From: Eledone cirrhosa
Taxonomy: Eukaryota
NCBI GenBank assembly: GCA_964016885.1
Contig: OZ024740.1
Location: 30,008,001 to 30,072,000, forward strand
Direction of reading: 5' to 3'
DNA: 64,000 nt
In this document: positions 21,701 to 64,000 of the stretch, piece after piece
Numbering within the stretch: the stretch's first letter is position 1
How the letters are laid out: each line of letters begins with the position of its first letter
Made by a program: the position numbers and the translations under genes
The notes under the pieces: generated by a model
Seen by the model: the letters and a program-made list of their open reading frames with translations, nothing else
Database searches by the model: none
Told to the model about the DNA's origin: nothing

Positions 21701-24619
21701 CGACAACATCACCAATAACAACAACAGTAACAACAACATAACCAATAACAACAACAGTAACAACAACATCACCAATAACAACAACAGTAACAACAACATC
21801 ACCAATAACAACAACAGTAACATCAACAGCAGCACCAATAACAGCAACAGTAACAACAACAGCAGCACCAATAACATCAACAGTAACAACAACAACATCA
21901 CCAATAACAACAACAGTAACAACAACAACAGCACCAATAACAACAACAGTAACAACAACAACAGCACCAATAACAACAACAGTAACAACAGCAGCAGCAC
22001 CAATAACAGCAACAGTAACAACAACAACATCACCAATAACAACAACAGTAACAACAACAACAGCACCAATAACAACAACAGTAACAACAACAACATCACC
22101 AATAACAACAACAGTAACAACAACAACAGCACCAATAACAACAACAGTAACAACAACAACAGCACCAATAACAACAACAGTAACAACAGCAGCAGCACCA
22201 ATAACAGCAACAGTAACAACAACAACATCACCAATAACAACAACAGTAACAACAACAACAGCACCAATAACAACAACAGTAACAACAACAACATCACCAA
22301 TAACAGCAACAGTAACAACAACAACATCACCAATAACAACAACAGTAACAACAGCAGCAGCACCAATAACAGCAACAGTAACAACAACAACAGCACCAAT
22401 AACAACAACAGTAACAACAACAACATCACCAATAACAACAACAGTAACAACAACAGCAGCACCAATAACAGCAACAATAACAACAACAACATCACCAATA
22501 ACAGCAACAGTAACAACAACATCACCAATAACAACAACAGTAACAACAACAACATCACCAATAACAACAACAGTAACAACAACAACAGCACCAATAACAA
22601 CAACAGTAACAACAACAACAGCACCTATAACAGCAACAGTAACAACAACAACATCACCTATAACAGCAACAGTAAGAACAACATCACCAATAACAACAAC
22701 AGTAACAACAACATCACCAATAACAGCAACAGTAACAACAACAACATCACCAATAACAACAACAGTAACAACAACAACAGCACCAATAACAGCAACAGTA
22801 ACAACAACAACATCACCAATAACAACAACAGTAACAACAACAACATCACCAATAACAGCAACAGTAACAACAACAACATCACCAATAACAACAACAGTAA
22901 CAACAACATCATCACCAATAACAACAACAGTAACAACAGCAGCAGCACCAATAACAGCAACAGTAACAACAGCAGCAGCACCAATAACAACAATAGTAAC
23001 AACAACAACATCATCAATAACAGCAACAGTAACAACAACAACATCACCAATAACAACAACAGTAACAACAACAACATCACCATTAACAGCAACAGTAACA
23101 ACAACAACATCGCCTATAACAACAACAGTAACAACAACAACAGCACCAATAACAGCAACAGTAACAACAACAGCACCAATAACAGCAACAGTAACAGCAA
23201 CAGCACCAATAACAGCAACAGTAACAGCAACAGCAACAATAACAGCAACAGTAACAGCAACAGCACCAATAACAGCAACAGTAACAGCAACAGCACCAAT
23301 AACAGCAACAGTAACAACAACAACAGCAACAGTACCAACAACATCACCAATAACAGCAACAGTAACAACAACATCACCAATAATAGCAACAGTAACAACA
23401 ACAACAGCACCAATAACAGCAACAGTAACAACAACAACAGCAACAATAACAACAACATCACCAATAACAGCAACAGTAACAACAACATCACCAATAACAG
23501 CAACAGTAACAACAACAACATCACCAATAACAGCAACAGTAACAACAACAACAGCAACAGTAACAACAACATCACCAATAACAGCAACAGTAACAACAAC
23601 ATCACCAATAACAGCAACAGTAACAACAACAGCACCAATAACAGCAACAGTAACAGCAACAGCACCAATAACAGCAACAGTAACAGCAACAGCACCAATA
23701 ACAGCAACAGTAACAACAACAGCACCAATAACAGCAACAGTAACAGCAACAGCACCAATAACAGCAACAGTAACAACAACAGCAACAGTAACAACAACAT
23801 CACCAATAACAGCAACAGTGACAGCAACAGCACCAATAACAGCAACAGTAACAACAACAGCACCAATAACAGCAACAGTAACAACAACAGCACCAATAAC
23901 AGCAACAGTAACAACAACAGCAACAATAACAACAACAGTAACAACAACAGCACCAATAACAGCAACAGTAACAACAACAACAGCACCAATAACAGCAACA
24001 GTAACAACTTCACCAATAACAGCAACAGTAACAACAACAGCAACAATAACAGCAACAGTAACAACAACATCACCAATAACAGCAACAGTAACAACAACAG
24101 CACCAATAACAGCAACAGTAACAACAACAGCACCAATAACAGCAACAGTAACAACAACAGCACCAATAACAGCAACAGTAACAACAACATCACCAATAAC
24201 AGCAACAGTAACAGCAACAGCACCAATAACAGCAACAGTAACAACAACAGCACCAATAACAGCAACAGTAACAACAACAGCACCAATAACAGCAACAGTA
24301 ACAACAACAGCACCAATAACAACAACATTATCAACAACAATAATAATAACAACATCAATAACAGCAACAATAATACACTAACTACAACATCAATAACAAC
24401 AATTGAACCACTGGTACGTGTATCTGACTGATTCTTTAGGTCATCGCCCCGAAAACTGAAAAAAAGGGAAACAGTTGACGTAGAGGAGATTCGATCCCAT
24501 CATCTAATGAATCGCCACAAATACTACAACGGATTGTTTTCTCAACCTTCTAATGATTCTACCCATCTATCGCCCTTATTCTCTCATACGTCTTCTCGAT
24601 AACCAGAATATCAGTCGAG

Positions 24620-27600
24620 CCCGTAGCAGTGGAGGCTTCTTGTGTCGTTAGCCCTAGGACCACCTCATTACTCACCACCATCAGTACCCCGTAACTGTGG
24701 AGACTTCTGGTATCCTTGGCCCTAGGACCACCTCCCTACTCACCACCATCGATACCCCGTAACTGTGGACACTTCTGGTGTCCTTGACCCTAGGACCTCC
24801 TCCCTACTCACCACCATCGCTACGGCGTAAGTGTGGAGACTTCTGGTGTCCTTGACCATAGGACCGCCTCCCTACTCACCACCATCTGAACCCCATAACT
24901 GTGGAGTCCTCTGGTGTCGTTAGCTCTAGAACCACCTCCCTACTCACCACCATCGGTACCTGGTAACTGTGGAGATATCTGGTGTCCTTGTCCCTAGGAC
25001 CACTTCTTTACTAACCACCATCGGTACCCCGTTACTGTGGAGACTTCCGGTGTCCTTGGCCCTAGGACTACCTCCTTACTCACCACCATCTGTAACCCGT
25101 AACTGTGGAGACTTCTGGTGTCCTTGGCCCTAAGACCACCTCTTTACTCACGACCATCGCTACGGCGTTAGTGTGGAGACTTCTGGTATCCTGGGCCCTA
25201 GGACCACCTCACTACTCACCAACATCGGTACCCCATAACTGTGGAGACCTCTGGTGATCTTGGCCCTAGGACTACCTTCCTACTCACCACCATCAGCACC
25301 TTGTAATAGTGGAGACCTCTGGTGTCGTTGGCCCTAGGACACCTCCTTACTCACCACCATCGGTACCCCGTAACTGTGGGGACCTCTGGTGTCGTTGGCC
25401 CTAAGACCACCTCCGTAATCACAACCATCTGTACCTCGTAACTGTGGAAACCTCTGGTGTCCTTGGCCCGAGGACCAGCTCTTTACTCACCACCATCGGT
25501 ACCCCGTTACTGTGGAGACTTCCGGTGTCCTTGGGCCTAGGACCACCTCCCTACTCACCACCATCGGTACCCCATTACTGTGGAGACCTCTGGTGATCTT
25601 GGCCCTAGGACTACCTGCCTACTCACCACCATCAGTACCTTGTAATAGTGGAGACCTCTGGTGTCGTTGGCCCTAGGACCACCTCCTTACTCACCACCAT
25701 CGGTACCTCGTAACTGTGGAAAACCTCTGGTGTCCTTGGCCCTAGGACCACCTCCCTAATCACCACCATCGCTACTCCGTTACTGTGGAGACCCTGGTGT
25801 CCTTGGCCCTAGGACCACCTCCTAACTCACCAAGATCGGTACCCCGTAACTTGGAGACTTCTGGTGTCCTTTGCCCTAGGACCACCTCCCTACTCACGAG
25901 GATCGGTATGGCGTAGCTCTGGAGACTTCTGGTGTCCTTGCCCCTAGGACCACCTCCCTACTCACCACCATCACTACCCCGTTACTGTGGAGACCTCTGG
26001 TGTCCTTGATTCTAGGACCACCTCCCTACTCAACACCATCAGCACCTTGTAATAGTGGAGACCTCTGGTGTCGTTGGCCCTAGGACCACCTCCTTACTCA
26101 CCACCATCGGTACCCCGTATCTGTGGGGACCTCTGGTGTCGTTGGCCCTAAGACCACCTCCGTAATCACCACCATCGGTACCTCGTAACTGTGGAAACCT
26201 CTGGTATCCTTGGCCCGAGGACCACCTCTTTACTCACCACCATCGGTACCCAGTTACTGTGGAGACTTCCGGTGTCCTTGGGCCTAGGACCACCTCCCTA
26301 CTCACCACCATCGGTACCCCATTACTGTGGAGACCTCTGGTGTCCTTGGCCCTAAGACCACTTCCTTACTCACCACCATCGCTACCCCGTAACTGTGGAG
26401 ACTTCTGGTTTCCTTGGCCCGTGGACCACCTCCCTACTCACGACCATCGGTACCCCGATAACTGTGGAGACCTCTGGTGTCGTTGGCCCTAGGACCACCT
26501 GACTACTCACCACCATCGCTACCCCGTAACTGTGGAGACTTCTGGTTTCCTTGGCCCGTGGACCACCTCCCTACTCACCACCATCGGTACCGCGTAACTG
26601 TCGAGACCTCTGGTATCCTTGGCCCTAGAACCACCTCCCTACTCACCACCATTTGTACCCCATAACTGTGGAGAACTCTGATGTCCTTGGCCCTAGGACC
26701 ACCTCTTTACTTACCACCATCGCTACCCGTTATGGTGGAGACTTCTGGTATCTTTAGCCCTAGGACCACCTCACTACTCACGACGATCGGTACGGCGTAG
26801 CTCTGGAGAATTCTGGTGTGCTTGCCCCTAGGACCAGCTCCCTACTCACGACCATCGGTACCCCGTAACTTTGGAGTCTTCTGGTATCCTTGGCCCTAGG
26901 ACCACCTCCTTACTCACAACCATATGTTCCCTTGTAACTGTGGAGACCTCTGGTGACATTGGCCCAAGGACCGCCTCCCTACTCACCACCGTCGGTACCA
27001 CGTAACTGTGGAGACCTCTGGTGTCTTTGGCCCTAGGACCACCTCTTTACTCACCACCATCGCTACGCCATAAGTGTTGAGACCTCTGGTGTCCTTGGCC
27101 CTAGGGACACCTCCCTACTCACTACCATCACTACCCCGTTACTGTGGAGACTTCTGGTGTCCTTGGCCTTAGGACCACCTCCCTACTCACCAACATCAGT
27201 ACCACGTAACTGTGGAGACTTCTGGTATCCTTGGCCCTAGGACCACCTCCCTACTCACCACCATCAGCACCCCGTAACTGTGGAAACCTCTGGTGTCCTT
27301 GGCCCTAGGACTCCTCCCTACTCACCACCATCGGTACCCCATAACTGTAGAGACCTCTGGTGTCGTTGGGCCTAAGACCACATCTCTAATCACCACCATC
27401 GGTACCTCGTAACTGTGGAGACCTCTGGTGTCCTTGGCCCTAGGACCACCTCTTTACTCACCACCATCGGTACCCCGTTACTGTGGAGACTTCCGGTGAC
27501 CTAGGCCCTAGGACCACCTCCTTACTCACCACCATCGCTACCCCGTAACTGTGGAGACTTCTGGTGTCCTTGGCCCGTGGATCACCTCCCTACTCACCAC

Positions 27601-30600
27601 CATCGGTACCTCGTAATTGTGAAGACCTCTGGTGTCCTTGGCCCTAGGACCACCTCCCTACTCACGACCATCGGTACCCCATAACTGTGGAGACCTCTGT
27701 TGTCCTTGGCCCTAGGACCACCTCCCTAATCACCACAATAAGCACCTTGTACTAGTGGAGACCTCTGGTGTCGTTGGCCCTAGGACCACCTCCTACTCAC
27801 CACCATCGGTACCCCATAACTGTGGAGACCTCTGGTGTCGTTAGCCCTAGGACCACCTCCCTACTCACCATCTTCGGTATCTCGTAACTGTGGAGACCTT
27901 TTGTTTCCTTGGCAATAGGGCCACCTCTTTACTCACCACCATCGGGACCCCGTAACTGTGGAGACTTCCGGTCTCCTTGGCCCTAGGACTACCTACCTAC
28001 TCACCACCATCTGTACCCCGTAACTTTGGAGACGTCTGGTATCCTAGGCCCTAGGACCACCTCCCTACTCACCACCATCGGTACCCCGTAACTGTGGGGA
28101 CTTCTGGTATCCTTGGCCCTAGGACCACCTCCCTACTCACCACCATCGGTACCCCTTAACTGTCGAGACTTCTGGCATCCTTGGCCCTAGGACCACCTCC
28201 TTACTCACCACCATCGGTACCCAAAAACTGTGGTGACCTCTGGTGTCGTTAGCCCTAGGACCACCTCCTTACTCACCATCATCGGTACGCCGTAACTGTT
28301 GGGACTTCTGGTGTCATTGGCCCTAGGACCACCTCCTTACTCACCACCATCAGTACTTCGTAACTGTGGGGACTCTTGGTGTCCTTGACCCTAGAACCAC
28401 CTCCTTACTCACCACCATCGCTACCTCGTTACTGTGGAGACTTCTGGTGTCCTTGGCCTTAGGACCACCTCCGTACTCACGACCATCAGTACCCCGTAAC
28501 TGTGGAGACTTCTGGAGTTTGGGGCCCTAGGAACACCTGCCTATTCAACACCATCAGCACCCAGTAACTGTGGAAACATCTGGTATCCTTGGCCCTAGGA
28601 CCACCTCCCTACTTACGGCCATTGCTACGCCGTAAGTGTGGAGACTTCTGGTATCATTGGCCCTAGTACCACCTCCCTCCTCACCACCATCGGTACCCCA
28701 TAACTGTGGAGACCTCTGGTTATTTGTCCCTAGGACCACCTCCCTAATCACCACCATCGCTACCCCGTTACTGTGGAGAACTCTGGTGTCCTTGGCTCTA
28801 CGACCACCTCCGTACTCACCACCATCGTTACCCCGTTACTGTGGAGACCTCTGGTGTCCTTGGCCCTAGGATCACCTCCCTACTCACCACCATCGTTACC
28901 CCGTTACTGTGGAGACCTCTGGTGTCCTTGGCTCTACGACCACCTCCCTACTCACCACCATCGATATCCCATAACTGTGGAGTCCTCTTGTTTCCTTGGC
29001 CCTAGGATCACCTCTTTACTCACCACCATCGGTACCCCGAGGTGTACTCCCCGTTACTGTGGAGAACTCATTGGCCCAAGGCAACCTCTTTACTCACCAA
29101 CATCGGTACCCGTAACTGTGGACAATTATGATGTCCTTGGCCCTAGGAACACCTCCCTACTCCCGACCATCGGTACGCCGTAACTGTGGAGACTTCTGGT
29201 GTCATTGGCCCTAGGACCACCTCCTTACTCACCACCATCGGTACCCCATAAATGTGGAGACCTCTGGTGCACTTGGCCCTAGGACCACCTCCCTACTCAC
29301 CACCATCAGTACCCCGTAACTGTGGGGACTTTTGGTGTCATTGGCCCTAGGACCACCTCCTTACTCACCACCATCGGTACCCCATAAATGTGGAGACCTC
29401 TGGTGGACTTGGCCCTAGGACCACCTCCCTACTCACCACCATTGGTACCCCGTTACTGTGGAGACCTCTGGTGTCCTTGGCTCTACGACCACCTCCGTAC
29501 TCACCACCATCGTTACCCCGTTACTGTGGAGACCTCTGGTGTCCTTGGCCCTAGGACCACCTCCCTACTCACCACCATTGGTACCCCGTTACTGTGGAGA
29601 CCTCTGGTGTCCTTGGCTCTACGACCACCTCCGTACTCACCACCATCGCTACCCCGTTATGTGGAGATTTCTGGTGTCCTTGGCCCTAGGACCACCTCCC
29701 TACACACCACCATCTGTACCTCGTAACTGTGGGGACTTTTGGTGTCCTTGGCCCTAGGACCACCCCCTTACTCACCACCATCGCTACCCCGTTACTGTGG
29801 AGACCTCTGGTGTCCTTGGCCCTAGGACCACCTCCTACTCACCACCATCGTTACCCCGTTACTGTGGAGACCTCTGGTGTCCTTGGCTCTACGACCACCT
29901 CCCTACTCACCACCATCGATATCCCATAACTGTGGAGTCCTCTTGTTTCCTTGGCCCTAGGATCACCTCTTTACTCACCACCATCGGTACCCCGTAACTG
30001 TGGAGACTTCTGGTATCCTTGGCCCTAGGAACACCTCCCTAATCACCACCATCGTTACCCTGTAATTGTGGGGACTTCTGGTGTCCTTGGCCCTAGGACC
30101 ACCTCCCTACACACCACCATCTGTACCTCGTAACTGTGGGGACTTCTGGTATCCTTGGCCCTAGGACCACCTCCCTACTCACCACCTTCGGTATCTCGTA
30201 ACTTTGGATTTTTTTTTTTACTTGGCCCTAGGATCACCTCTTTACACACCACCATCGGTACCCCGTAACAGTGGGGACTTCTGGTGTCCTTGGCCCTAGG
30301 ACCACCTCCTTACTCATCAACATCGGTTCACCACCATAACTGTGGAAACCTCTGGTGTCCTTGGCCCTAGGACCACCTCTTTACTCACCACCATCGGTAC
30401 CCCGTAACTGGTGGAGACTTCCGGTGTCCTTGGCCCTAGGACCACCTCCCTTCTCACCACCATCGGTACGCCGTAACTGTGGAGACTTCTGGTGTCCTTG
30501 CCCCTAGGACTGCCTCCCTACTCAAAACATCTGTACCCCAAAACTGAGGAGACATCTGGTATCCTTGGCCCTAGGACCACCTCCCTACTCAAAACCATCG

Positions 30601-33600
30601 CTATCCCGTAACTGTTGGGACTTCTGGTATCCTTGGCCTTAGTACCACCTCCCTACTCACCACCATCAGCACCTTGTAATAGTGCAGACATCTGGTGTTG
30701 TTGGCCCTAGGACCACCTCCTTACTCAACACCATCTGTACCCCGTAATTGTGGAGACCTCTGGAGACCTTGGCCCTAGGACCACCTCCCTACTCACCACC
30801 ATCGGTACCACGTAACTGGTGGAGACTTCCGGTGTCCTTGGCCCTAGGACCACCTCCCTACTCCCGACCATCGGTACGCCGTAACTGTGGAGATTTCTGG
30901 TGTCCTTGGCCCTAGGAACAAGTCCCTACTCCCGACCATCGGTAAGCCGTAACTGTGGAGACTTCTGGTGTCATTGGACCTAGGACCACTTCCCTACTCA
31001 CCAACATCAGTACCCCGTACCTGTGGAAACCTATGGTGGCCTTGGCTCTAGTACCACCTCCCTACTCACCACCATCGCTACCCCGTTATGTGGATATTTC
31101 TGGTGTCCTTGGCCCTAGGACCACCTCCCTACACACCACCATCTGTAACTCGTAACTGTGGATACTTCTGATATCCATGGCCCTAGGACCACCTCCCTAC
31201 TCACCACCATCGCTACCCCGTGATTGTGGACACTTCTGTTGTCCTTAGCCCTAGGACCACATCTTTAATCACTACCATCAGTACCCCATAACTGTGGAAA
31301 CTTCTGGTGTTTTTGGCCCTAGGACCACCACCCTATTCACCACCATATGCACCCCGTAACTGTGGAAACCTCTTGTGTCCTTGGCCCTATGACCACCTCC
31401 CTACTCACCACCATCGCTACCCCGCTATGTGCAGATTTCTGGTTTCCTTTGCCCTAGGACCACCTGCCTACACACCACCATCTGTACCTCGTAACTGTGG
31501 AGACTTCTGGTATCCTTGGCCTAGGACCACCTCCCTACTCAACACCATCGGTACACCTTAACTGTGGGGACTTCTGGAGTCCTTGATCCTAGGACCACCT
31601 CCCTACTCACCACCATCGCTATCCCGTAACTGTGGAGACTTTTGGTGTCCTTGGCCCTAGGACCACCTCCCTTCTCACCACCATCGGTACGCCGTAACTG
31701 TGGAGACTTCTGGTGTCCTTGCCCCTAGGACTGCCTCCCTACTCAAAACATCTGTACCCCAAAACTGAGGAGACATCTGGTATCCTTGGCCCTAGGACCA
31801 CCTCCCTACTCAAAACCATCGGTATCCCGTAACAGTTGGGACTTCTGGTATCCTTGGCCTTCGTACCACCTCCCTACTCACCACCATCAGCACCTTGTAA
31901 TAGTGCAGACATCTGGTGTTGTTGGCCCTAGGACCACCTACTTACTCACCACCATCTGTACCCCGTAATTGTGGAGACCTCTGGAGACCTTGGCCCTAGG
32001 ACCACCTCCCTACTCACCACCATCGGTACCACGTAACTGGTGGAGACTTCCGGTGTCCTTGGCCCTAGGACCACCTCCCTACTCCCGACCATCGGTACGC
32101 CGTAACTGTGGAGATTTCTGGTGTCCTTCGCCCTAGGAACACGTCCCTACTCCCGACCATCGGTAAGCCGTAACTGTGGAGACTTCTGGTGTCATTGGCC
32201 CTAGGACCACCTCCCTACTCACCACCATCAGTACCCCGTAACTGTGGAAACCTCTGGTGGCCTTGGCTCTAGTACCACCTCCCTACTCACCACGATCGCT
32301 ACCCCGTTATGTGAATATTTCTGGTGTCCTTGGCCCTAGGACCACCTCCTTACACACCACCATCTGTAACTCGTAACTGTGGATACTTCTGATATCCATG
32401 GCCCTAGGACCACCTCCCTACTCACCACCATCGCTACCCCGTGATTGTGGACACTTCTGGTGTCCTTAGCCCTAGGACCACCTCTTTAATCACTACCATC
32501 AGTACCCCATAACTGTGGAAACTTCTGGTGTTTTGGGCCCTAGGACCACCACCCTATTCACCACCATATGCACCCCGTAACTGTGGAAACCTCTTGTGTC
32601 CTTGGCCCTAGGACCACCTCCCTACTCACCACCATCGCTACCCCGCTATGTGCAGATTTCTGGTTTCCTTTGCCCTAGGACCACCTGCCTACACACCACC
32701 ATCTGTACCTCGTAACTGTGGAGACTTCTGGTATCCTTGGCCTAGGACCACCTCCCTACTCAACACCATCGGTACACCGTAACTGTGGGGACTTCTGGAG
32801 TCCTTGATCCTAGGACCACCTCCCTACTCACCACCATCGCTATCCCGTAACTGTGGAGACTTTTGGTGTCCTTGGCCGGTGGACCACCTCCCTATTCACC
32901 ACCATCGGTACCTCATGATTGTGGATAACTCTGGTGTCCTTGGCCCTAGGACCACCTCCCTACTCTCGACCAGCGGTACCCCATAACTGTGGAGACCTCT
33001 GGTGTCATTGGCCCTAGGACCACCTCCCTACTCACCACCATCAGCACCTCAAAATTGTGAAGACCTCTGGTGTCATTGGCCCTAGGACCACCTCCCTACT
33101 CACCACCATCAGCACCTTATAATTGTGGAGACCTCTGGGGTCCTTGCCCCTAGGACTACCTCCCTACTCACCAACAGCTGTACCCGGAAACTGTGGAGAC
33201 TTCTGGTATCCTTGGCCCTAGGACCACCTCCGTACTCCCAACCATCGGTACCCCGTAACTGTGGGGACTTTTGGTGTCCTTGGCCCTAGGACCACCTTCC
33301 TACTCACGAACATCTCCACGCCGTAAGTGTGGAGTATTCTGGTATCCTTGGCCCTAGGACCACCTCTCTACTCACGACCATCGGTACCCCATAACTGTGG
33401 ACACCTCTAGTGTCCTTGGCCCTAGGACCACCTCCATACTCACCACCATCAGCACCTTGTAATAGTGGAGACCTCTGGTGTGGTTGGCCCTAGGACCACC
33501 TCCCTACTCACCACCATCTGTCCCCCTTAACTGTCGAGATTTCTGTTATCCTTGGCCCTACGACCACCTCCCTACTCTCCACCACCGCTACGCCGTAAGT

Positions 33601-39600: not shown

Positions 39601-42600
39601 AGGTCCACCTCCCTACTCACCACCATCGGTACCGCATAACTGTAGACACCTCTGGTGACCTTGGTCCTAGGACTATCTCCCTACTCACCACCATCGGTAC
39701 CTCGTATCTGTGGAAACTTCTGGTGTTCTTGGCCCTAGTACCAACTCCCTACTCACCACCATCGCTACCCCGTTACTGTGGAGACCTCTGGTCTCCTTGG
39801 CCGTAGGACCACCTCCCTATTCACCACCATCAGCACCCCGTTACTGTGGAAACCTCTGGTGTCCTTGGCCCTAGGACCACCTCACTACTCACCACCATCG
39901 GTACCCCGTAACTTTGAAGACTTCTGTAGACTTTGGCCCTAGGACCACATCCCTATTCACCACCATCAGCACCCCGTAAGTGTGAAAACCTCTGGTGTCG
40001 TTGGCCCTAGGACCATCTCCCTATTCACCACCATCGGTACACCGTAACTGTCGAGACTTCTGAAATCCGTGACCATAGGACCACCTCCCTACTCACCACC
40101 ATCGGTACCTCGTATCTGTGGAAACCTCTGGTGTTCTTGGCCCTAGTACCAACTCCCTACTCACCACCATCGCTACATCGTTACTGTGGAGACTTCTGAT
40201 GTCCTTGGCCCTACGACCACCTCCCTACTCACCACCATCTGTACCTCGTAACTGTGGTGACCTCTGGTGTCCTTGGCCCTACGACCAACTCCCTACTCAC
40301 CACAATCGCTACCCCGTTACTGTGGAGACCTCTAGTGTCCTTGGCCCTAAAACCACCTCCCTACTCACCACCATCGCTACCCCGTTAGTGTTGAAACCTC
40401 TGGTGTCCTTGGCCATAGGACCACCTCCTTACTCACCACCATCGGTACGCTATAACTGTGGAGACCTCTAGTGTCCTTGGCCCTAAAAGCACCTCCCTAC
40501 TCACCACCATCGCTACCCCGTTAGTGTGGAAACCTCTGGTGTCCTTGGCCCTAGGACCACCTCCCTACTAACCACCATCGATACCCCGTAACTGTGGGGA
40601 CTTCCGGTGTCCTTGGCCCTAGGACTACCTCCATAATCACGACCATCGCTACGCCGTAAGTGTGGAGACCTGGTAACCTTGGCCCTAAAACCACCTCCCT
40701 ACTCACCACCCTCGGTACCTCGTATCTGTGGAAACCTCTGGTGTTCTTGGCCCTAGTACCACCTCCTTACTCACCACCATCGCTATCCCTTTACTGTGGA
40801 GACCACTGGTCTCCTTGGCCGTAGGAACAACTCCTTATTCACCACCATCGCTACCCCGTAACTGTGGAGACTTCTGGAGTCCTTGGCCCAAGGACCACCT
40901 CCCTAATCACCACCATCAGCACCCCGTGACTATGGAAACCTCTGGTGTCCTTGGCCCTAGGACCAACTCCATACTCACCACAATCGCTACCCCGTTATGT
41001 GGAGATTTCTGGTGTCCTTGACCCTAAGACCACCTCCCTACTCACCACCATCAGCACCTTGCAATAGTGGAGACCTCTGGTTTCGTTGGAACTAGGTCCA
41101 CCTCCTTACTCACCACCATCTGTAACCCGTTACTGTGGAGACTTTTGGTGTCTTTGGCCCTAGAACCACCTCCCTACTCACCACCATCAGTACCCCGTAA
41201 CTGTGGGGACTTCTGGTGTCCTTGGCCCTAGTACCACCTCATTACTCACCACCATCGCTACCCCGTTACTGTGGAGCTTTCTGGAGTCCTGGGCCCTAGG
41301 ACCACCTCCCTACTCACCACCATGAGTACCCTGTAATTGTGGAGACTTCTGGGGTCCTTGGCCCTAGGACCACCTCCTTATTAACCACAATCAGAACCCC
41401 GTAAGAGTGGAAACCTCTGATGTCCTTGGCCCTAGGACCACCTCCCTACTCACCACCATTTGTACCTCGTAACTGTGGAGACTTCTGGTATCCTTGGCTC
41501 TAGGACCACCTCCCTACTCAACACCATCGGTACCGCGTAACTGTGGGGACTTCTGGTGTCCTTGGCCCGTGGACCACCTCCCTACTCACCACCATCGCCA
41601 TCGCGTAACTGTGGAGACCTGTGGTGTCCTTGGCCCTAGGACCACCTCCCTACTAACGACCATCGGTACCCCATAACTGTGGAGACCTGTGGTGTCCTTG
41701 GCCCTAGGACCACCTCCCTACTCAACACCATCAGCACCTTGTAATAGTGGAGACCTCTGGTGTCCTTGGCCCTAGGACCAACTCCCTACTCACCACCATC
41801 GCTACCCCGTTAATGTTGAAACCTCTGATGTCCTTGGCCCTAGGACCACCTCCCTACTCACCACCATCGGTACCCCATAACTGTGGAGACGTCTGGTGAC
41901 CGTGGTCCTAGGACCACCTCCCTACTCACCACCATCGGTACCTCGTATCTGTGGAATCCTCTGGTGTTCTTGGCCCTAGTACCACCTCCCTACTCACTAC
42001 CATCGCTATCCCGTTACTGTGGAGACCTCTGGTCTCCTTGGCCGTAGGAACACCTCCCTATTCACCACCATCAGCACCCCGTAACTGTGGAAACCTCTGG
42101 TGTCCTTGTCCCTAGGACCACCTCCCTACTCATCACCATCGGAACCCCGTAACTGTGGAGACTTCTGGTGTCCTTGGCCCTAGGACCACATCCCTATTCA
42201 CCACCATCAGCACCCCGTAAGTGTGGAAACCTCTGGTGTCTTTGGCCCTGGGACCATCTCCCCTACTTTCCACCATCGGTACCTCATAACTGTGGAGACT
42301 TCTGGTGTCGTTGGCCCTAGGGCCACCTCCCTACTCACCACCATCGGTACCTCATTACTGTGGTGACCTCTGGTGTCCTTGGCCCTAGAACCACCTCTTT
42401 ACTCACCACCATCGGTACCCCGTAACTGTGGAGACCTCTGGTGACCTTGGCCCTAGGACCACCTCCATACTCACCACCATCGGTACCTCATAACTCTAGT
42501 GACCTCTGGTGTCCTTGGCCCTAGGACCACCACTTTACTCACCACCATCGGTACCCCGTAACTCTGGAGACTTCTGGTGTTTTTGGCCCTAATACCACCT

Positions 42601-45600
42601 CCCTACTCACCACTATCGGTACCGCGTAACTGTGGGGACTTCTGGTGTCCTTGATCCTAGGTCCACTTCCATACTCACCACCATCGCCATCGCGTGACTG
42701 TGGAGACTTTTGGTGTACTTGGCCCGTGGACCACCTCCCTACTCACCACCATCGGGGCCACATAATTGTGGAGACCTCTGGTGTCCTTGGCCCTAGGACC
42801 ACCTCCCTACTAACGACCATCGGTACCCCATAACTGTGGAGACCTCTGGTGTCCTTAGCCCTAGGACCACCTGCTTACTCACCACCATCGCTACCCCGTT
42901 ACTGTGGAAACCTCTAGTGTCCTTGGCCCTAAAACCACCTCCCTACTCACCACCATCGCTACCACGTTAGTGTGGAAACCTCTGCTGTCCTTGGCCCTAG
43001 GAGCACCTCCCTATTCACCACCATCAGCACCCCGTAACTATGGAAACCTCTGGTGTCCTTGGCCCAACTCCATACTCACCACAATCGCTACTCCGTTATC
43101 TGGAGATTTCTTGTGTCCTCTGCCCTAAGACCACCTCCCTACTTACCACCATCAGCACCCCGTAAGTGTGGAAACCTCTGGTGTCGTTGGCCCTAGGACC
43201 ATCTCCCTACTCACCACCATCGGTACCCTGTAACTGTGAAACTTCTGATATCCGTGACCCTAGGACCACCTCTTTACTCACCACCATCGGTACCCCGTAA
43301 CTGTGGTGACTTCTGGTGTCCTTGGCCATAGGACCACCCCCCTACTAACGACCATCGGTACGCCGTAACTGTGGAGACTTCTGGTGTCCTTGGCCCTAGG
43401 ATCACCTTCCTACTCACGACCATCGGTATGCCGTAACTCTGGAGACTTCTGGTGTCCTTGATCCTAGGACCACCTCCCTACTCACCACCATCGCCATCGC
43501 GTAACTGTGGAGACTTTTGGTGTCCTTGGACCGTGGACCACCTCCCTACTCACCACCATCGGTGCCACATAATTGTAGAGACCTCTGGTGTCCTTGGCCC
43601 TAGGAACACCTCCCTACTAACGACCATCGGTACCCCATAACTGTGGAGACCTCTGGTGTCCTTGGCCCTAGGACCACCTCTCTATTCACCACAATCATCA
43701 CCCCGTAACTATGGAAACCTATGGTGTCCTTGGCCCTAGGACCAACTCCATACTCACCACAATCGCTACCCCGTAATGTGGAGACTTCTGGTGTCCTTGG
43801 CCCTAAGACCACATCCCTACTCACCACCATCAGCACCTTGTAATAGTGGAGACCTCTGGTGTCGTTGGAACTAGGTCCACCTCCTTACTCACCACCATCT
43901 GTAACCCTTAACTGTGGGGACCTCTGGTGACCTTGGCCCTAGGACCACCTCCATACTCACCACCATCGGTACCTCATAACTGTGGAGACCTCTGGTGTCC
44001 TTGGCCCAAGGACCACCTTCTTGACTCACCACCATCGGTGCCCCGTAAGTGTGGGGACTTCCGGTGTCCTTGGCCCTAGGACCACCTCCCTACTCACGAC
44101 CATCGGTACGCCGTAACTGTGGAGACTTCTGGTGTCCTTGGCACTAGGACCATTTCCCTACTCACCACCATCGGTACCTCGTAACTGTGGAGATCTCTGG
44201 TGTCCTTGGCCCTAGGACCACCTCCCTACTCACCATCATCAGTACCCTGTAACTGTGGAGACTTCTGGTGTCCTTGGTCCGAGGACCACCTCCCTATTCA
44301 CCACAGCACCCCGTAACTGTAGAGACCTCTGGTGTTTTTGGCCCTGTGCCCTGTAACGGTGGAGATTTCTGGTGTCCTTGGCCCTAGGACCACCTCCCTA
44401 ATCACCACCATCAGCACCCCGTAAGAGTGGAAACCTCTGGTGTCCTTGGCCCTAGGACCACCTCCCTACTTACCACCATCGCTACTCCGTTACTGTGGAG
44501 ACCTCTGGAGTCCTTGGCCCTAGGATCACCTCCCTACTCACCACCATCGCTACCCCGTTACTTTTGAGACCTCTGGTCTCCTTCGCCCTAGGACCATCTC
44601 CCTACTCACCACCATCGCTACCCGTTACTGTGGAGACTTCTGGTGTTCCTTGGCCCTAGGACCAACTCCCTAATCACCACCACAGTACCCCGTAACTGTG
44701 TAGACTTCTGGTGTCCTTGGCCCTAGGACCACCTCCCTACTCACCACTATCGTTACCCCGTTACTGTGGAGACCTCTGGTGTCCTTGGCGCTAAGACCAC
44801 CGCCCTACTCACCACCATCGGTACCTCGTAACTGTGGAGACCTCTGGTATCCTAGACCCTAGGACCACCTCCCTACTCACAACCATCGTTACCCCATAAC
44901 TGTGGAGACCTCTTGTGTCCTTGGTCCTACGACTACCTCCCTACTCACTACCATCAGCACCTTGTAATAGTGGAGATCTCTGGTATCGTTGGACCTGGGA
45001 CCACCTCCTTACTCACCACCATCTATAATCCGTAACTGTGGAGAGCTCTGGTGACCTTGGGCCTAGGACCCCCTCCATACTCACCACCATCGGTACCTCA
45101 TAACTGTGGATATCTCTGGTGTCCTTGGCGCTAAGTCCACCTCTATACTCACCACCATCGGTACCACGTAAGTGTGGATACTTCTGGTGTCCTTGGCCCT
45201 AGGACCACCTCCCTACACACCACAATCGGTACCTCATAACTGTGGTGACCTCTGGTGTCCATGGCCCTAGGACCACCTCTTTACTAACCACCATCGGTAC
45301 CCCGTTACTGTGGAGACTTCTGGTGTCCTTGGCTCTAGGACCGCCTCCCTACTCACCACCATCAGTACCCTGTAACTGTGGAGACTTCTGGTGTCCTTGG
45401 CCGTAGGACCACCTCCCTATTCACCACCATCAGGACCCCGTATGAGTGGAAACCTCTGGTGTCCTTGGCCCTAGGACCACCTCCCTACTCACCACCATCG
45501 TTACCCCGTTACTGTGGAGACCTCTGGTGTCCTTGGCGCTAGGACCACCTCCATACTCACCACCATCGGTACCTCGTAACTGTGGGGACCTCTGGTATCC

Positions 45601-48600
45601 TAGGCCCTAGGACCACCTCCCTTCTCACAACCATCGTTACCCCATAACTGTAGAGACCTCTTGTGTCCTTGGTCCTAGGACCACCTCCCTACTCACCACC
45701 ATCAACACCTTGTAATAGTGGAGATCTCTGGTGTCCTTGGCCCTAGGACCACCTCCCTACTCACCACCATCGGTACCCCGTAACTGTAGGGACTTCTGGT
45801 GTCATTGGCCCTAGGACCAACTCCCTACTCAACCCCATCGCTACTCCGTTACTGTGCTGACCTCTGGTGTGCTTGGCCATAGGACCACCTCCCTACTCAC
45901 CACCATCGGTACCTGGTAACTGTGGAGACTTCTGGTGTCCTTGGCCCTAGGACCACCTCCCTACTCACCGCCATCGCTACCCCGTTACTGTGATGACCTC
46001 TGGTGTCCTTGGCCATAGGACCACTTCCCTACTCACCGCCATCAGCACCTTGTAATAGTGGACACCTCAGGTGTCGTTGGCCCTAGGACCACCTCCTTAC
46101 TCACCACAATCGGTACCCCGTAACTTTGGAGACCTCTTGTTTCCTTAGCCCTAGGACCACCTCCATACTCACCACCATCTATACCCCGAAACTGTGGAGA
46201 CTTCTAGTATCCTTGACCCTAGGACCACCCCCTACTCACCACCATCGGTATCTCGTAATTGTGGAGACCTCTGGAGTCCTTGGCCCTAGGACCACCTCCC
46301 TACTCACGACCATCGTTACCCCATAACTGTGGAGACCTCTGGTGTCCTTGGCCCTAGGACCACCTCCCTACTCACCACCATCAGCACCTTGTAATAGTGG
46401 ACACCTCAGGTATCGTTGGCCCTAGGACCACCTCCTTACTCACCACAATCGGTACCCCGTAACTGTGGAGACCTCTTGTTTCCTTAGCCCTAGGACCACC
46501 TCCATACTCACCACCATCTGTACCCCGAAACTGTGGAGACTTCTGGTATCCTTGGCCCTAGGACCACCTCCCTACTCACCACCATCGGTACCTCGTAATT
46601 GTGGAGACCTCTAGAGTCCTTGGCCCTAGGACCACCTCCCTACTCACGACCATCGGTACCCCATAACTGTGGCGACCTCTGGTGTCCTTGGCCCTAGGAC
46701 CACCTCCCTACACACCCTATCAGCACCTTGTAATAGTGGAGACCTCTGGTGTCGTTGTCCATAGGACCACCTCCCTACTCACCACCATCGGTACCCCGTA
46801 ACTGCCGAAACTTCTGGTAACATTGGCCCTCGGACCACCTCCTTTCTCACCACCATCGGTACCCCATGACTGGGAAGACCTCTGGTGTCGTTGGCCCTAG
46901 GACCACCTCCCTACTCACGACCATCGGTACCCCATAACTGTGGTGACATACGGTGTCCTTGGCCCTAGGATCACCTCCCTACACACCACCATCTGTACCC
47001 CGTTACTGTGGAGACCTTTGATGCCCTTGGCCCTAGGACCACCTCCTTACTCACCAACATCGGTACCCCATAACTGTGGAGACCTCTGGTGTCCTTGGCC
47101 CAAGGACCACCTCCCTACTCACCACCATCGCTACCTCGTAACTGTGGAGACCTCTGGCGTGCTTGGCTCTAGGACCACCTCCCTACTCACCACCATCAGC
47201 ACCTTGCAATAGTGGAGACCTTTGGTGTCGTTGGCCCTAGGACCACCTCCTTACTCACCACCACCTGTACCCCGTAACTGTGGAGAGCTCTGGTGACCTT
47301 GGCCCTTGGACCACCTCCCTACTCACCACCATCGCTACCTCGTAATTGTGGAGACCTCTGGTGTCGTTGGCCCTAGGACCACCTCCTTACTCACCACCAC
47401 CCGTACCCCGTAACTGTGGAGACTTCCGGTGTCCTTGGCCCTAGGACCACCTCCCTATTCACCACCATCAGTACCCCATAACTTGTATTGACTTCTGGTG
47501 TCCTTGGCCCTACGACAACCTACACACCACCATCAGCACCTTGTAATAGTGGAGACCTCTGGTGTCGTTGGCCATAGGACCACCTCCCTACTCACCACCA
47601 TCGTTACCACGTAACTGTCGAGACTTCTGGTAACATTGGCCCTAGGACCACCTCCCTACTCAACACATTCGGTACCTCGTTACTGTGGAGACCTCTTGTT
47701 TCCTTGGCCCTAGGACAACCTCTTTACTCACCACCAGCGGTACCCCATAACTGTGCAGAACTCTTGATTCGTTGGCCCTAGGACCATCTCCTTACTCACC
47801 ACCATCTGTACCCCGTTACTGTGGAGACCTCTGGCGTCCTTGGCCTTAGGACCACCTCCCTACTCACAACCATCGGTACCCCATAACTGTGGAGAACTCT
47901 TGTGTCCTTGGTCCTATGACCACCTCCCTACTCACCACCATCAGCAACTTGTAATAGTGGAGACCTCTGCTGTCGTTGGCCCTAGGACCACCTCCTTACT
48001 CACAAACATCGGTACCCATAACTGTGGAGACCTCTGGCGTCCTTGGCCCTAGGACCACCTCCCTCCTCACGACCATCGGTACCCCATAAGTGTGAAGACC
48101 TCTTGTGTCCTTGGTCCTATGACCACCTCCCTACTCACAACCATCAGCACCTTGTAATAGTGGAGACCTCTGGTGTCGTTGGCCCTAGGACCACCTCCTT
48201 ACTCACCACCACCTGTACCCCGTAACTGTGGAGACCTCTGGTGACCTTGGTCCTAGGACCACCTCCCTATTCACCGCCATCAGTACCCCATAACTGTGGA
48301 GATTTCTGGTGTCCTTGGCCCTAGGACCACCTCCCTGCTCACGACAATCGGTAGGCCATAACTGTGGAGACTTCTGGTGTCCTTGGCCCTAGGAACACCT
48401 CCCTACTCACGATCATCGGTACGCCGTAACTGTGGAGACTTCTGGTGTCCTTGGCCATAGGACCACCTCCCTACTCACCACCATCACTACCCCGTAACTG
48501 TGGGGACTTCTGGTGTCCTTTACCCTAGGACCACCTCTCTAAACACCACCATTGGTACCCCGTTACTCTGGAGACCTCTGGTCTCCTTGGTCCTAGGACC

Positions 48601-51600
48601 ACCTACCTACTTACCACCATCAGCACCCCGTAATTGTGGAGACTTCTGGTGTCCTTGGCGCTACGACCACCTCCCTACTCACCACCATCAGTACCCCGTA
48701 ACTCTAGGAACTTCTGGTGTCCTTGGCCCCAGTACCACCTCCCTACTCACCACCATCTCTACCCCGTTACTGTGGAGACCTCTGGTGTCCTTGGCCCTAG
48801 GACCACCTCTCTACTCCCCACCATCGCTACCCCGTTACTGTGGTGACTTCTGCTGTCCTTGGCACTAGGACCACCTCCCTATTCACCACCATCGGTACCT
48901 CGTAACCGAGGAGATCTCTGGTGTCCTTGGCCCTAGGACCACCTCCCTATTCACCACCATCAGTACCCCGTAACTGTAGGGACTTCTGGTGTCCTTGGCC
49001 CTAGAACTACCTCCCTACTCACCACCATCGCTACAACGTTACTGTGGAGACCTCTGGTGTCCTTGGCCCTAGGACCACCTCCCTATTCACCACCATCGGT
49101 ACCTCGTAACTGTGGAGACATCTGGTGTCTTTTGACCTAGGACCACCTCTTTACTAACCACCATCGGTACCCCGTAAGTGTGGAAACTTCCGGTGTCCTC
49201 GCCCTAGGACCACCTCTCTACTCACCACCATCGCTACATCGTTACTGTGGAGACTTCTGTTGTCCTTGGCCCTAGGGCCGCCTCCCTACTCACCACCATC
49301 AGTACCCTGTAACTGTGAAGACTTCTGATGTCCTTGGCCCTAGGACCACCTCCCTACTCAACCCCATCGCTACTCCATTACTGTGCTGACCTCTGGTGTC
49401 CTTGGCCCTAGGACCACCTCCCTACTCACAACCATCACTACCCCGTTACTGTGGAGACTTCTGGGGTCCTTGGCCCTAGGACCACCTCCATACTCACCAC
49501 CATCGGTACCTCATAACTGTGGATATCTCTGATGTCCTTGGCCCTTGGACCACCTCCCTACTCACCACCATCGGTACCCCGTAACTGTAGGGACTTCTGG
49601 TGTCCTTGGTCCTAGGACCAACTCCCTACTCACCCCCATCGCTACTCCGTTACTGTGCTGACCTCTGGTGTCCTTGGCCCTAGGACCACCTCCCTACTCA
49701 CCACCATCGCTACCCCGTTACTGTGGAGACCGCTGGTATCCTTGGCCCTAGGACCACCTCCCTACTCACCAGCATCGCTACCCGTTACTGTGGAGACTTC
49801 TGATGTCCTTGGCCCTAGGACCACCTTCCTAATCACCACCACAGTACCCCGTAACTGTGGATGCTTCTGGTGTCCTTGGCCCTAGGACCACCTCCCTACT
49901 CACCACCATCAGCACCCCGTAACTGTGGAAACCTCTGGTGTCCTTGGCCCTAGGACCACCTCCCTACTCACCACCATCGGTACCTCTTAACTGTGGAGAC
50001 CTCTGTTATCCTCGGCCCTAGGCCACCTCCCTACTCACAACCATCGTTACCCCATAACTGTGGAGACCTCTTGTGTCCTTGGTCCTAGGACCACCTCCCT
50101 ACTCACCACCATCAGCAACTTGTAATAGTGGAGACCTCTGGTGTCGTTGGACCTAGGACCACCTCCTTACTCACCACCATCTGTAACCCGTAACTGTGGA
50201 GACCTCTGGTGAACTTGGCCTTAGGACCACCTCCATACTCTCTACTATCGGTACGTCGTAACTGTGGAGACCTCTTGTGTCCTTGGCCGTAAGACCACCT
50301 CCTTACTCACCAACATCGGTACCCGTAACTGTCGAGATTTCTGGTGTCCTTCGCCCTAAGACCACCTCCCTACTCACCACCATCAGTACCTCATAACCGT
50401 GGTGACCTCTGGTGTCCTTGGCCCTAGGACCACCTCTTTAATCACCACCATCGGTACCCCGTAAGTGTGGAGACTTCTGGTGTCCTTGGCCCTAGGACCA
50501 CCTCTTTACTCACCACCATCGGTATCCCGTAACTGTGGGGACTTCTGGTGTCCTTGGCCCTAGGACCACATCTCTACTCACCACCATCGCTACATCGTTA
50601 CTGTGGATACTTCTGGTATCCTTGGCCCTAGGACCACCTCCCTACTCACCACATTCGGTACCCCGTAACTGTGGAGACTTCTGGTATCCTTGGCCCTAGG
50701 TCCACCTCCTTACTCACAACCATCGGTAACTCGTAACTGTGGAGACCTCTGTTGTCCTTGGCCCTAGGACCACCTCCCTACTCACCACCAATTGTACCCC
50801 GATACTGTGGAGACCTTTGGGGCCCTTGGCCCTAGGACCACCTCTTTACTCACCACCATCGGTCCCCGTAACTGTGGAGACTTCCGGTGTCCTTGGCCGT
50901 AGGACCACCTCCCTACTCACCACCATCGGTACCCCGTAACTGTGGAGACCTCTTGTTTCCTTGGCTCTAGGACCACCTCCTTACTCTCCACCATCTGTAC
51001 CGCGAAACTGTGGAGACTTCTCGTATCCTTGGCCCTAGGATCAGCTCTTTACTCACCACCATCGGTACCCCGTAACTGTGGGGACTTCCGGTCTCCTTGG
51101 CCCTTGGACTAACTTCCTACTCACCACCATCTGTACCCCGTAACTGTGGCGGCTTCTGGTGTCCTTGGCCCGTGGACCACCTCCCTACTCACCACCATCG
51201 GTACCTCGTAATTGTGGAGACCTCTGGAGTCCTTGGCCCTAGGACGACCTCCCTACACCCCACCATCAGCACCTTGTAATAGTGGAGACCTCTGGTGTCG
51301 TTGGCCATAGGACCACCTCCCTACTCACCACCATCGTTACCACGTAACTGTCGAGACTTCTGGTAACATTGGCCCTAGGACCACCTCCTTACTCAACACA
51401 TTCGGTACCTCGTTACTGTGGAGACCTCTTGTTTCCTTGGCCCTAGGACAACCTCTTTACTCACCACCATCGGTACCCCATAACTGTGCAGACCTCTGGA
51501 TTCGTTGGCCCTACGACCATTTCCTTACTCACCACCATCTGTACCCCGTTACTGTGGAGGCTTCTGGTGTCCTTGGCCCGTGGACCACCTCTCTACTCAC

Positions 51601-52290
51601 AACAATCGGTACCCCATAACTGTGGAGACCTCTTGTGTCCTTGGTCCTATGACCACCAACCCTACTCACCACCATCAGCAACTTGTAATAGTGGAGACCT
51701 CTGGTGTCGTTGGCCCTAGGACCACCTCCTTACTCACCAACATCGGTACCCATAACTGTGGAGACCTCTGGTGACCTTGGCCCTAGGACCACCTCCCTAC
51801 TTACCACCATCGGTACCTCGTAACTGTGGAGACCTCTGGTGTCCTTGGCCCTAGGACTACCTCATTACTCACCACCATCGGTACCCCGTAACTGTGGAGA
51901 CTTCCGGTGTCCTTGACCCTAGGACCACCTCCCTATTCACCACCATCAGTACCCCATAACTGTGGAGATTTCTGGTGTCCTTGGCCCTAAGACCACCTCC
52001 CTGCTCACGGCCATCGGTACGCCATAACTGTGGAGACTTCTGGTGTCCTTGGCCCTAGGACCACCTCCCTACTCACCACCATCGGTACTCCGTAACTGTG
52101 GAAACTTCTGGTGTCCTTGGCCCTAGGACCACCTCCCTACTCACCACCATCGGTACTCCGTAACTGTGGAAACTTCTGGTGTCCTTGGCCCTAGGACCAC
52201 CTCCCTACTCACCACCATCGGTACTCCGTAACTGTGGAAACTTCTGGTGTCCTTGGCCCTAGGTCCACCTCCCTACTCACCACCATCGGC
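24620..52290 (+). repeat. 68-bp tandem satellite, ~400 copies, consensus GTAACTGTGGAGAC(T/C)TCTGGTGTCCTTGGCCCTAGGACCACCTCCCTACTCACCACCATCGGTACCCC; retrotransposon-derived
   Basis: Period measured directly (atcggtactc at 52081 and 52149). The unit translates to PVTVETSGVLGPRTTSLLTTIGT, matching the single-copy element at 53108-53175. Confidence 0.97.
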
Positions 52291-52440
52291 ACAGACTTGG
52301 TTACCCTCAGGTGTGAGTCTCAACTGGAATGGCTCTTCCAACGCGTCCCCATCGCCATCCTCCGGGGAAATGCCTTTTCTATTCAGTCCGCCTGGGTCGC
52401 GGAACGACTAGCACATTGGCTCCCATTTGCTCTTAATAGG
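52234..52440 (+). mobile_element. 3' end of a CRE-like (RLE-endonuclease) non-LTR retrotransposon, continuous with the last satellite unit
   Basis: Frame reads VETSGVLGPRSTSLLTTIGTDLVTLRCESQLEWLFQRVPIAILRGNAFSIQSA. The L.QR.S.AI.RGNA motif is characteristic of CRE-clade RLE C-termini. DNA aligns by eye with 53117-53336. Confidence 0.85.
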
Positions 52441-52887
52441 AGAGATGGGGAGAGTAGGAGAGGTGGAGACAGTGACAGTGTGAGTTTGGTTCCTTTGTGT
52501 TCGGACCTGGTGTATATGTATATATTTACCAGACCACATCCTTCATCTATACACTAAAATAACACTGACTTATCTGTAAACAACAACATTAACACAATAA
52601 ACACTAAGAATAAGAATAACTTTAAACACAACAGTAAAGGCAGCAAAAGAGTAAAACACAGCAATTCAATTAATATATCATGGGGCCCAAGTTGTCGGCC
52701 TCCACCCCCTACATGGTGGGCTCTAGAAACTGAACTTTGTATCTTTGATCTCGAGCAGGTGAACGACAACATGAGACAAACTCAAGAAGAAGATTTAAAT
52801 CATTACTAAGAACAAACATTTTCAAATTTTGCAATACAACAGTAACAGCATTAAAACCACCTTTATGGAACAAGAGTGATTATCACT

Positions 52888-53336
52888 TAGCCGGTGGGGC
52901 TGGTCCGAGGGGATAGCAAAAGGCCAAACGGTATGACCATCTTCCCATTCCGCGGTAGCAAACCCCTCGTCTGGGATGCCACTTACAGCGACACTTTCTC
53001 CAGCCGCCGCAACCTGGTGCAGTCTGCGACTAACCCAGTTACTGAGCACGTCGGGCTGAGGAGGCCAAACTCTCCAAGTACAGGTCGCCGACAGGTTTGC
53101 GGTCGTGCCCTTGGCAGTGGAGACTTCTGGTGTCCTTGGCCCTACGGCTACCTCCCTATTCACCACCATAGGCTCTGAGCAGGCCAGCCGCAGGTGTGAG
53201 CCTCGCGAGCTGGAATGGCTCTTCCACCGCATCTCCCTTACCATCCTCCGGGGAAACGCCTTCTCCATCCTGTCCGCCGGGGCTGTTAGGATGCCAGCAC
53301 GTGGGACCCCATTTACTCACCATACGGATTAATAGG
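52888..53336 (+). mobile_element. Degenerate 5'-truncated CRE-like non-LTR retrotransposon, RLE (PD-D/ExK-type) domain, two frameshifts
   Basis: Three successive frames give PVGLVRGDSKRPNGMTIFPFRGSKPLVWDATYSDTF / ARRAEEAKLSKYRS (53046-53087) / DRFAVVPLAVETSGVLGP...ELEWLFHRISLTILRGNAFSIL. These are the RPDG..WD, KxxKY, PxxVExxG and RGNA motifs, with catalytic PD mutated to PN. Confidence 0.88.
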
Positions 53337-53689
53337 CAAAGTTATAAACTATTGTTTCTACCGGTTGGAAGTCGGTGTTACATTCATGTTACAATAATTG
53401 AGAAAATGTTCTTACGACTACAAGAAGGATACCTCACTATTCTAAATTATACACAGACTAGGCGGATACTTGGTGACATATAGTACCGGTTTATTCCAGT
53501 TCAAACCTAGCATCACAACATAACGATGTTCTATAGCCTCATACCTCTATTACTTTTCTTCCCCCTAAATTTCTTTCACTCCTTTCTTCTTTTCATTAAT
53601 TTCTGTTCTTATGTTTCTATATTTTCTTGTTTCTAATTTTTCTTCTCGACATTTCTTACAATTCTGTAAGCAGCTGCATGTCCTCTTTC

Positions 53690-63100: not shown

Positions 63101-64000
63101 GTTGTATATATATAGTAATGTAGGTGTTGTATATAGTATTGTAGATGTTGTATATATAGTATTGTAGGTGTTGTATATATCGTAATGTAGGTGTTGTATA
63201 TATAGAATTGTAGGTGTTGTATATATATAGTAATGTAGGTGTTGTATATATAGTAATGTAGGTGTTGTATATATATAGTAATGTAGCTGTTGTATATATA
63301 TAGTAATGTAGGTGTTGTATATATATATAGTAATGTAGGTGTTGTATATATAGTAATGTAGGTGTTGTATATATAGTAATGTAGGTGTTGTATATATAGT
63401 AATGTAGGTGTTATATAAATAGTAATGTAGGTGTTGTATATATAGTAATGTAGGTATTATATATAGTATTGTAGGTGTGGTATATATAGTAATGTAGGTA
63501 ATATATATATATATATATATCATATTGTAGGTGTTGTATATATAGTATTGTAGATGTTGTATATATAGTATTGTAGATGTTGTATATATAGTATTGTAGA
63601 TGTTGTATATATAGTATTGTAGGTGTTGTATATATAGTAATGTAGGTGTTGTATATATAGTAATGTAGGTGTTGTATATATAGTATTGTAGGTGTTGTAT
63701 ATATAGTAATGTAGGTGTTGTATATATATAGTAATGTAGGTGTTGTATATATAGTAATGTAGGTGTTATATATATAGTAATGTAGGTGTTGTATATATAG
63801 TCTTGTAGGTGTTGTATATATAGTATTGTAGGTGTTGTATATAGAGTAATGTAGGTGTTGTATATATAGTAATGTAGGTGTTATATATAGTAATGTAGGT
63901 GTGGTATATATAGTAATGTAGGTGATATATATATATATATATCATATTGTAGGTGTTGTATATATAGTATTGTAGATGTTGTATATATAGCATTGTAGGT
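60128..64000 (+). repeat. 23-bp AT-rich minisatellite TATATATAGTA(T/C/A)TGTAGGTGTTG, ~165 copies, runs off the window edge
   Basis: Periodicity read directly. Length variation is confined mainly to the internal (TA)n. Confidence 0.97.

Follow-up and report, generated by a model that had tools for sequence, protein, structure and literature searches.

A 68-bp satellite array in Eledone cirrhosa belongs to a genome-wide family of repeats from the endonuclease-coding segment of a CRE-like LINE

A 64,000-nucleotide stretch of Eledone cirrhosa DNA (hereafter the window, C1:30008001-30072000 in a 3.0-Gb assembly) contains a long array of a 68-bp tandem repeat inside a copy of a CRE-like long interspersed nuclear element (LINE). 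It belongs, with satellites of 68 bp and 79 bp throughout the genome, to one family derived from the endonuclease-coding segment of that LINE. The array probably represents local overgrowth of a repeat which itself probably spread between LINE copies by recombination, and its joint, the junction between successive units, likely arose at another locus. On balance, and with some reserve, we lean towards ectopic spread of the joint between dispersed LINE copies combined with local growth of the arrays.

The initial annotation of the window had read the array as the birthplace of the satellite, with both flanks of the element in place. Both element flanks are indeed present at the array. However, the same joint stands at 30 or more other loci, many of which carry an ancestral joint that is missing from the window array, and since the other arrays that were fetched also run into LINE flanks, the anatomy that had been taken as the mark of a birthplace is common. 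The genome-wide check with the monomer that had been proposed did reveal arrays elsewhere; their flanks were not identical, so the window array was not transferred as a whole. The situation is a third one: the same internal repeat is present in many separate copies of the LINE.

Distribution of the 68-bp and 79-bp joints

A first genome search with the neighbouring element gave 6117 candidates, and a search with the right junction of the array led to other LINE copies with internal repeats in the same segment. A joint-pattern search yielded 190 matches and a free-gap joint search (periods 58-88) yielded 1128, and among the first 100 free-gap matches listed, 45 had a period of 68, 53 a period of 79, one of 69 and one of 71. 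The larger pattern searches are represented by their first 100 places, which leave out most loci on the smaller chromosomes, and all locus numbers are therefore lower bounds. Outside the window, the 68-bp joint was found at at least 30 loci, including 29 that were fetched (2-47 units, with three loci drifted to 67 or 69 bp) and one on the unplaced contig C1354. The immediate flanks of the 29 fetched loci differ, except for one pair (L101 and L111) that shares flanks and counts as one event, although both members were kept in the locus counts. The 79-bp joint occurs in the same segment at at least 17 loci, 14 of which were fetched, and in one of these at least 125 units take up a full 9.9 kb. 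Arrays whose end was fetched pass into the 3' part of the LINE, several also with upstream element sequence, and terminal units continue into the LINE on both sides.

The window array is the largest 68-bp array seen (408 units versus at most 47 elsewhere) and the most diverged of the eight arrays measured (0.172 versus 0.017-0.098), and it looks old. The ancestral joint of the consensus of subfamily B, an old subfamily of the LINE, is carried by many 68-type loci and by none of the units of the window array. Because the nearest neighbour of 96% of 342 window units lies within the array itself (when compared with 279 units from other loci), the array likely grew in place, as had been claimed for it; each larger array has its own fixed variants.

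With contig ends taken as chromosome ends, the outermost 35 Mb at either end of C1-C3 make up 17% of the length and contain 32 of the 36 repeat-bearing loci of these contigs. Pooled LINE monomers are nearly even along C1 0-107 Mb. Monomers with one particular 3' tail (tail G) are themselves distal (32/73 on C1), which makes a control with all subfamilies too lenient, and subfamily-B copies were used for this reason. Within the same 35 Mb of the ends of C1-C3 stand 19/23 of the 68-type loci versus 16/60 of the subfamily-B copies (Fisher p=5e-6), a control from which two known repeat loci were removed and in which the other copies were not checked individually. Interior clusters of B copies together with repeat-bearing loci were also seen, at C4 86-92 Mb and at C1 202-214 Mb, the latter with 9/24 of the B matches of C1 and two 68-type loci. 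Four contigs measure 379-443 Mb, none of the others seen exceeds 137 Mb, and it may be speculated that these interior clusters are relic chromosome ends at fusion sites.

A variant of the joint marked by CCTTG is confined to few places: all 40 genome-wide matches lie at C1 1.56, 3.59, 6.42, 11.78 and 30.03 Mb (the last being the window) or on C1354. It occurs at five of ten loci on this C1 arm versus none of 20 elsewhere (p=0.002). Six sites separate the window units that it marks from the majority, and at five of these sites the marked units match L139 and L141. Its hosts carry tails C, B, D and B, with one untyped, that is, three tail types among four typed hosts. No colinear flanks common to the CCTTG loci and the window were found, and segmental duplication was rejected as the cause of the shared variant, as these loci have in common only other interspersed repeats at non-colinear places. 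The majority joint of the window array recurs in a two-unit copy (L115) at C1 25.3 Mb, 4.7 Mb away.

Joints and hosts are also mismatched in the 79-bp register. In seven A-like hosts (tails A, G and H), both sides of the 79-bp joint are B-type, and the last units of these hosts are A-type, as are their 5' flanks where kept. In a tree of the 3' flanks (150 columns and 96 rows, with 9 mis-anchored, short or duplicate loci left out), one clade for the 79-type hosts was rejected by the approximately unbiased (AU) test (p=0.0015, 11 rows versus 85).

Some further repeats were observed alongside these two types. Periods of 51, 54 and 69 bp occur in or near the same segment, together with a 50-bp repeat further upstream (L135, L145, L146 and L050), and some of them look like deletion products of the 68-bp unit. 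A 48-bp tandem array lies inside another interspersed repeat (L142:1262-3137, minus-strand orientation), which is also present with a few units in L138, L139 and L141 and adds a second satellite of element origin to the same distal compartment. In contigs of organism B (X4), joints occur in the 68 and 79 registers, with sides shorter than 30 letters, and are given as a lead only; X1 and X2 contigs cover the unique right flank of the array and may be the source sample. Among the sequencing runs listed as holders, none was of RNA.

The window array and its host element

Tandem Repeats Finder (TRF) reports the array with 80% matches over about 27.7 kb, so that its length and the roughly 400-fold repetition of the 68-bp unit agree with what was first described. 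The array splits into 405 units, 342 of them 68 bp long, and the units lie 10.4% from their consensus. No higher-order period was found among the units, and no internal duplication of at least 96% was found in the array with a 64-base seed. Because this duplication search was negative and 334 of the 342 full-length units are distinct, the array does not appear to be an artefact of the assembly; its length is given as assembled. The array is non-coding, and no function is attributed to it. Its period of 68 is not divisible by 3, and no stop-free stretch in any of the six frames exceeds 149 aa, which means that a DNA segment was amplified and leads us to reject the amplification of a coding motif that the initial annotation had put forward.

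The host of the array is a 5'-truncated copy of the LINE, which encodes a reverse transcriptase (RT) and a restriction-like endonuclease (RLE), and belongs to the old subfamily B, with its 3' end at about 52539. The first unit and right flank together are collinear with monomeric LINE copies (best match 80.8% over 343 columns, E 4e-88; mean identity 79.5% over 24 subfamily-B copies). Both the first unit and the right flank carry host alleles, and the internal joints carry derived alleles. The sequences quoted earlier for the left edge and for the copy at 53100 are found where they had been placed, and the last unit does read in frame into ...VTVETSGVLGPRSTSLLTTIGTDLVTLRCESQLEWLFQRVPIAILRGNAFSI, a C-terminal RLE segment. 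As for the fragment that remains after removal of all but one unit, its colinearity was confirmed, and its size had to be raised from about 230 bp to about 325 bp, since the element reaches about 52539 via its 3' untranslated region (UTR). The copy around 53100 was rejected as the parent of the array, being of subfamily A and matching at 76.8% over 181 columns. No convincing target-site duplication was found around the LINE copy of the window, where candidate matches of 6-7 bp only were seen. The coordinates of these features are listed in Table 1; the match of its last row was noted post hoc, and 1.6% of random 11-mers do equally well.

Table 1. Features of the array, its host LINE copy and the neighbouring copy in the window
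Feature	Position	Strand	Remark
Start of the 5'-truncated LINE copy together with the first unit; upstream bases of B type and, immediately ahead of the unit core, the ancestral state	24612..24687	+	
68-bp tandem array, about 408 copies, 10% from consensus, 17% pairwise difference, without higher-order period	24620..52289	+	
23 scattered units with the CCTTG joint	25294..51267	+	variant also present at four further C1 loci (0-12 Mb) and on one unplaced contig
Rest of the host LINE on the 3' side: last part of the RLE domain, with a 3-nt deletion, and a 3' UTR of B type	52290..52539	+	
Separate, younger subfamily-A monomeric 3' fragment of the same LINE family	52889..53355	+	did not give rise to the array
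Additional element bases from further upstream (tentative), connected via a 22-bp deletion between two short repeats	24607..24617	+	10/11 match

The region of the window is nearly wall-to-wall tandem repeats. A 33-bp AAC-rich satellite has about 712 copies at 1251-24402, and its orientation flips abruptly at 1250/1251 without a spacer, the inverted part reaching at least 10 kb further upstream (window 1-24402 and L137). Two more satellites occupy 58595-60089 (21/42 bp) and 60135-64000 (23 bp), and the 23-bp array runs at least 10 kb past the window (L136).

The parent LINE family and comparable satellites

Relatives of nearly full length occur in the genome as well. One copy of the LINE (L132) retains a 725-aa open frame in which RVT_1 (Pfam, E 2e-12), a CCHC knuckle and the RLE follow in one reading frame, with a weak PHD match upstream. 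The frame ends in the segment seen in the array, and the 68-bp unit is located downstream of the RPD...D core of the RLE. The protein matches uncharacterised proteins of Octopus sinensis (up to 51%), a barnacle protein named SLACS (44% over 96%) and Diplonema "SLACS 132 kDa" proteins (E about 1e-52 over about 95%), the names being automatic annotations. R2 and L1 match it in the RT only (E 1e-3 to 1e-6), and protein atlas matches to the LINE are to unnamed RT clusters only. Compared by eye with the SLACS/CRE spacing in the available text of PMC12857005, the residues C, C, H, C, RH, E, RPD and D of the restriction enzyme-like (REL) domain stand in order, with three spacers off by one and a T after RH. 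As the SLACS-named matches are full-length, while R2 and L1 match only the RT, the parent LINE is well supported as CRE-like at the sequence level, and the origin of the array from the endonuclease-coding 3' end of such an element, as first proposed, is upheld.

LINE copies have unrelated flanks and no target site was seen. Subfamily-B copies are about 80% alike (old) and subfamily-A copies about 91% alike (younger). At least eight different 3' tails stand on a conserved RLE end (L002-L050 and L117-L157), which suggests repeated replacement of the 3' UTR in this family. Two further observations concern the family at large. Many longer relatives (P0121-P0138) have PF00443/PF13423 (ubiquitin hydrolase) in frame with the RT. 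Moreover, in 8/29 of the B-type matches the 5' truncation falls no more than about 15 bp from the unit start (L028, L031, L038, L042-L045 and L047) and many arrays likewise begin near the unit start, possibly at a site where reverse transcription stalls.

The CRE clade includes CRE1/2, SLACS, CZAR, Cnl1, MoTeR and FoTeR (PMC12857005, PMC12278014 and PMC10294476, in their available text), and the element described here has in common with them one reading frame with the RT followed by CCHC and RLE. CRE-type LINEs have been reported in cephalopods (available text of PMC10294476). Trypanosomatid and fungal members insert site-specifically with target-site duplication, whereas the present family has thousands of dispersed copies, no target site seen, and a weak PHD finger upstream in place of C2H2. 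Internal repeat regions or variable number tandem repeats (VNTRs) are described for some CRE and FoTeR elements (PMC12278014 and PMC12857005, available text); the FoTeR VNTRs are mostly 5', and the repeat here breaks the RLE frame.

The closest known case is that of the squamate satellites sSat1-3, which derive from short interspersed nuclear elements (SINEs) (PMC10702118, in its available text, as for all statements on sSat1-3 below). In both, tandem units (there of about 70-290 nt) come from inside a retroelement and number from a few to hundreds, the outermost units pass into the element (there sometimes on both sides), one or two unit types dominate at many loci, and a subtelomeric bias contrasts with a more even parent. 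Unequal recombination and concerted evolution are proposed for sSat1-3 by their authors, and the text offers no sign of joints moving between subfamilies or of variants limited to one arm. Unlike their SINE parent, the parent here is an autonomous RT-coding RT+RLE LINE whose coding region supplies the unit. The window satellite works like an sSat, yet it is not one.

CR1 and L1 are LINEs with an apurinic/apyrimidinic endonuclease. Satellites derived from LINE open reading frames are recorded in the available text of PMC9659126, namely chicken HinfI from CR1, Phodopus PROsat from L1 and the cetacean common satellite. The resemblance lies in a monomer homologous to LINE coding or 3' sequence; the parents there are CR1 and L1, and that text has no CRE or RLE example. 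In the open-licence literature (supplements outside scope), satellites derived from retroelements and from LINE coding sequence are thus already known, whereas no satellite of apparent CRE or RLE derivation, no cephalopod case and no monomeric copies seeded by conversion were met with.

Origin and spread of the joints

In the mechanism that we propose, the 68-bp joint would have formed on one or a few occasions within the old subfamily B. When a monomeric copy broke, an array would then serve as the repair template, or a circle of units would recombine in, and either event would add units with the donor's joint between the host's own flanks. Through unequal crossing-over and conversion each array would afterwards become longer and more uniform, the one in the window reaching about 400 units. 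The available text of PMC9659126 lists non-allelic and ectopic recombination among the ways in which tandem repeats arise, and unequal exchange with conversion may be taken as the motor of growth from the established satellite biology set out there. In a more specific form the joint would be contagious, an array converting a neighbouring monomeric copy via ectopic gene conversion or a unit circle, so that an arm could be colonised without transposition and without flanks; this form we regard as an open contender, a little short of probable.

Several observations weigh against the spread of joints between existing copies. In the 3'-flank tree 23/24 of the 68-type hosts fall in subfamily B, and their monophyly was not rejected (AU p=0.08, 24 rows versus 72). 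The 68-type host L107 was discarded as proof of a foreign host, because it is A-like by motifs only and the tree test does not reject it from the B side (p=0.50). Tails C and D account for 11/30 of the 68-type hosts versus 2/24 of the sampled monomers, as would be expected from masters that already bore the repeat, and a 68-register joint at L140 has an A-type right half and could represent independent formation. Some monomeric subfamilies (tail G) share the bias to chromosome ends, and any transfer of the joint may have run in either direction. The monophyly result, L107, the tails and L140 together mean that repeat-bearing masters may have contributed. If one or a few subfamily-B masters that already carried the 68-bp duplication had retrotransposed in trans, with local growth and with later exchange mixing arrays only, many copies of 2-4 units with variable 5' ends and mostly unrelated flanks would be accounted for, as would a window array apparently as old as its flanks. 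We nevertheless judge this explanation unlikely, since the repeat-bearing loci crowd at chromosome ends beyond the matched B copies, the CCTTG variant is restricted to one arm across three tail types, and B-type 79-bp joints stand within A, G and H hosts.

Two other explanations appear improbable, and to a similar degree. Duplications might form repeatedly de novo at a sequence hot spot in recombination-rich distal chromatin, as independent emergence has been argued for squamate satellites (available text of PMC10702118). Clear microhomology at offset 79, the L140 joint and the 48-bp array in another interspersed repeat of the same compartment are consistent with this. Microhomology is, however, absent at offset 68, so that repeated birth of the same 68-bp joint, which dominates along with the 79-bp one, is hard to explain; in addition, the joints in A-like hosts are unlike the hosts' own bases on both sides, and the G4Hunter score of the segment is not extreme. 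A G-quadruplex or hairpin as the cause of a hot spot was rejected as unremarkable, 6-16% of element windows being equally extreme in that score. Alternatively, the 68-bp joint might have been born at the window locus, with the window array as the mother that exported it to the others. The size and divergence of this array would suit a mother, and both its majority joint and a minority joint are common with loci on the same arm, yet none of its units has the ancestral joint expected from its own flanks, other loci carry exactly that joint, and the array is one of at least 31 candidate loci.

Ectopic spread of the joint followed by local growth therefore remains the account towards which we lean. 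The arrival of satellites at new loci is usually inferred from end states. Here the host subfamily, the 3' tail, the insertion age, the unit number (2 to 408) and the joint alleles are readable separately, and since retroelement flanks are kept at the loci, seeding, spread and growth can be distinguished. The value of the system lies in a family of loci in which host and joint are separately traceable, the window array being merely the largest example seen. If the joint is contagious, the thousands of dispersed LINE copies would serve as landing pads, and the subfamily alleles of host and joint would record each seeding event. If joints do enter existing monomeric copies, dispersed transposons would be receptors as well as sources of satellites.

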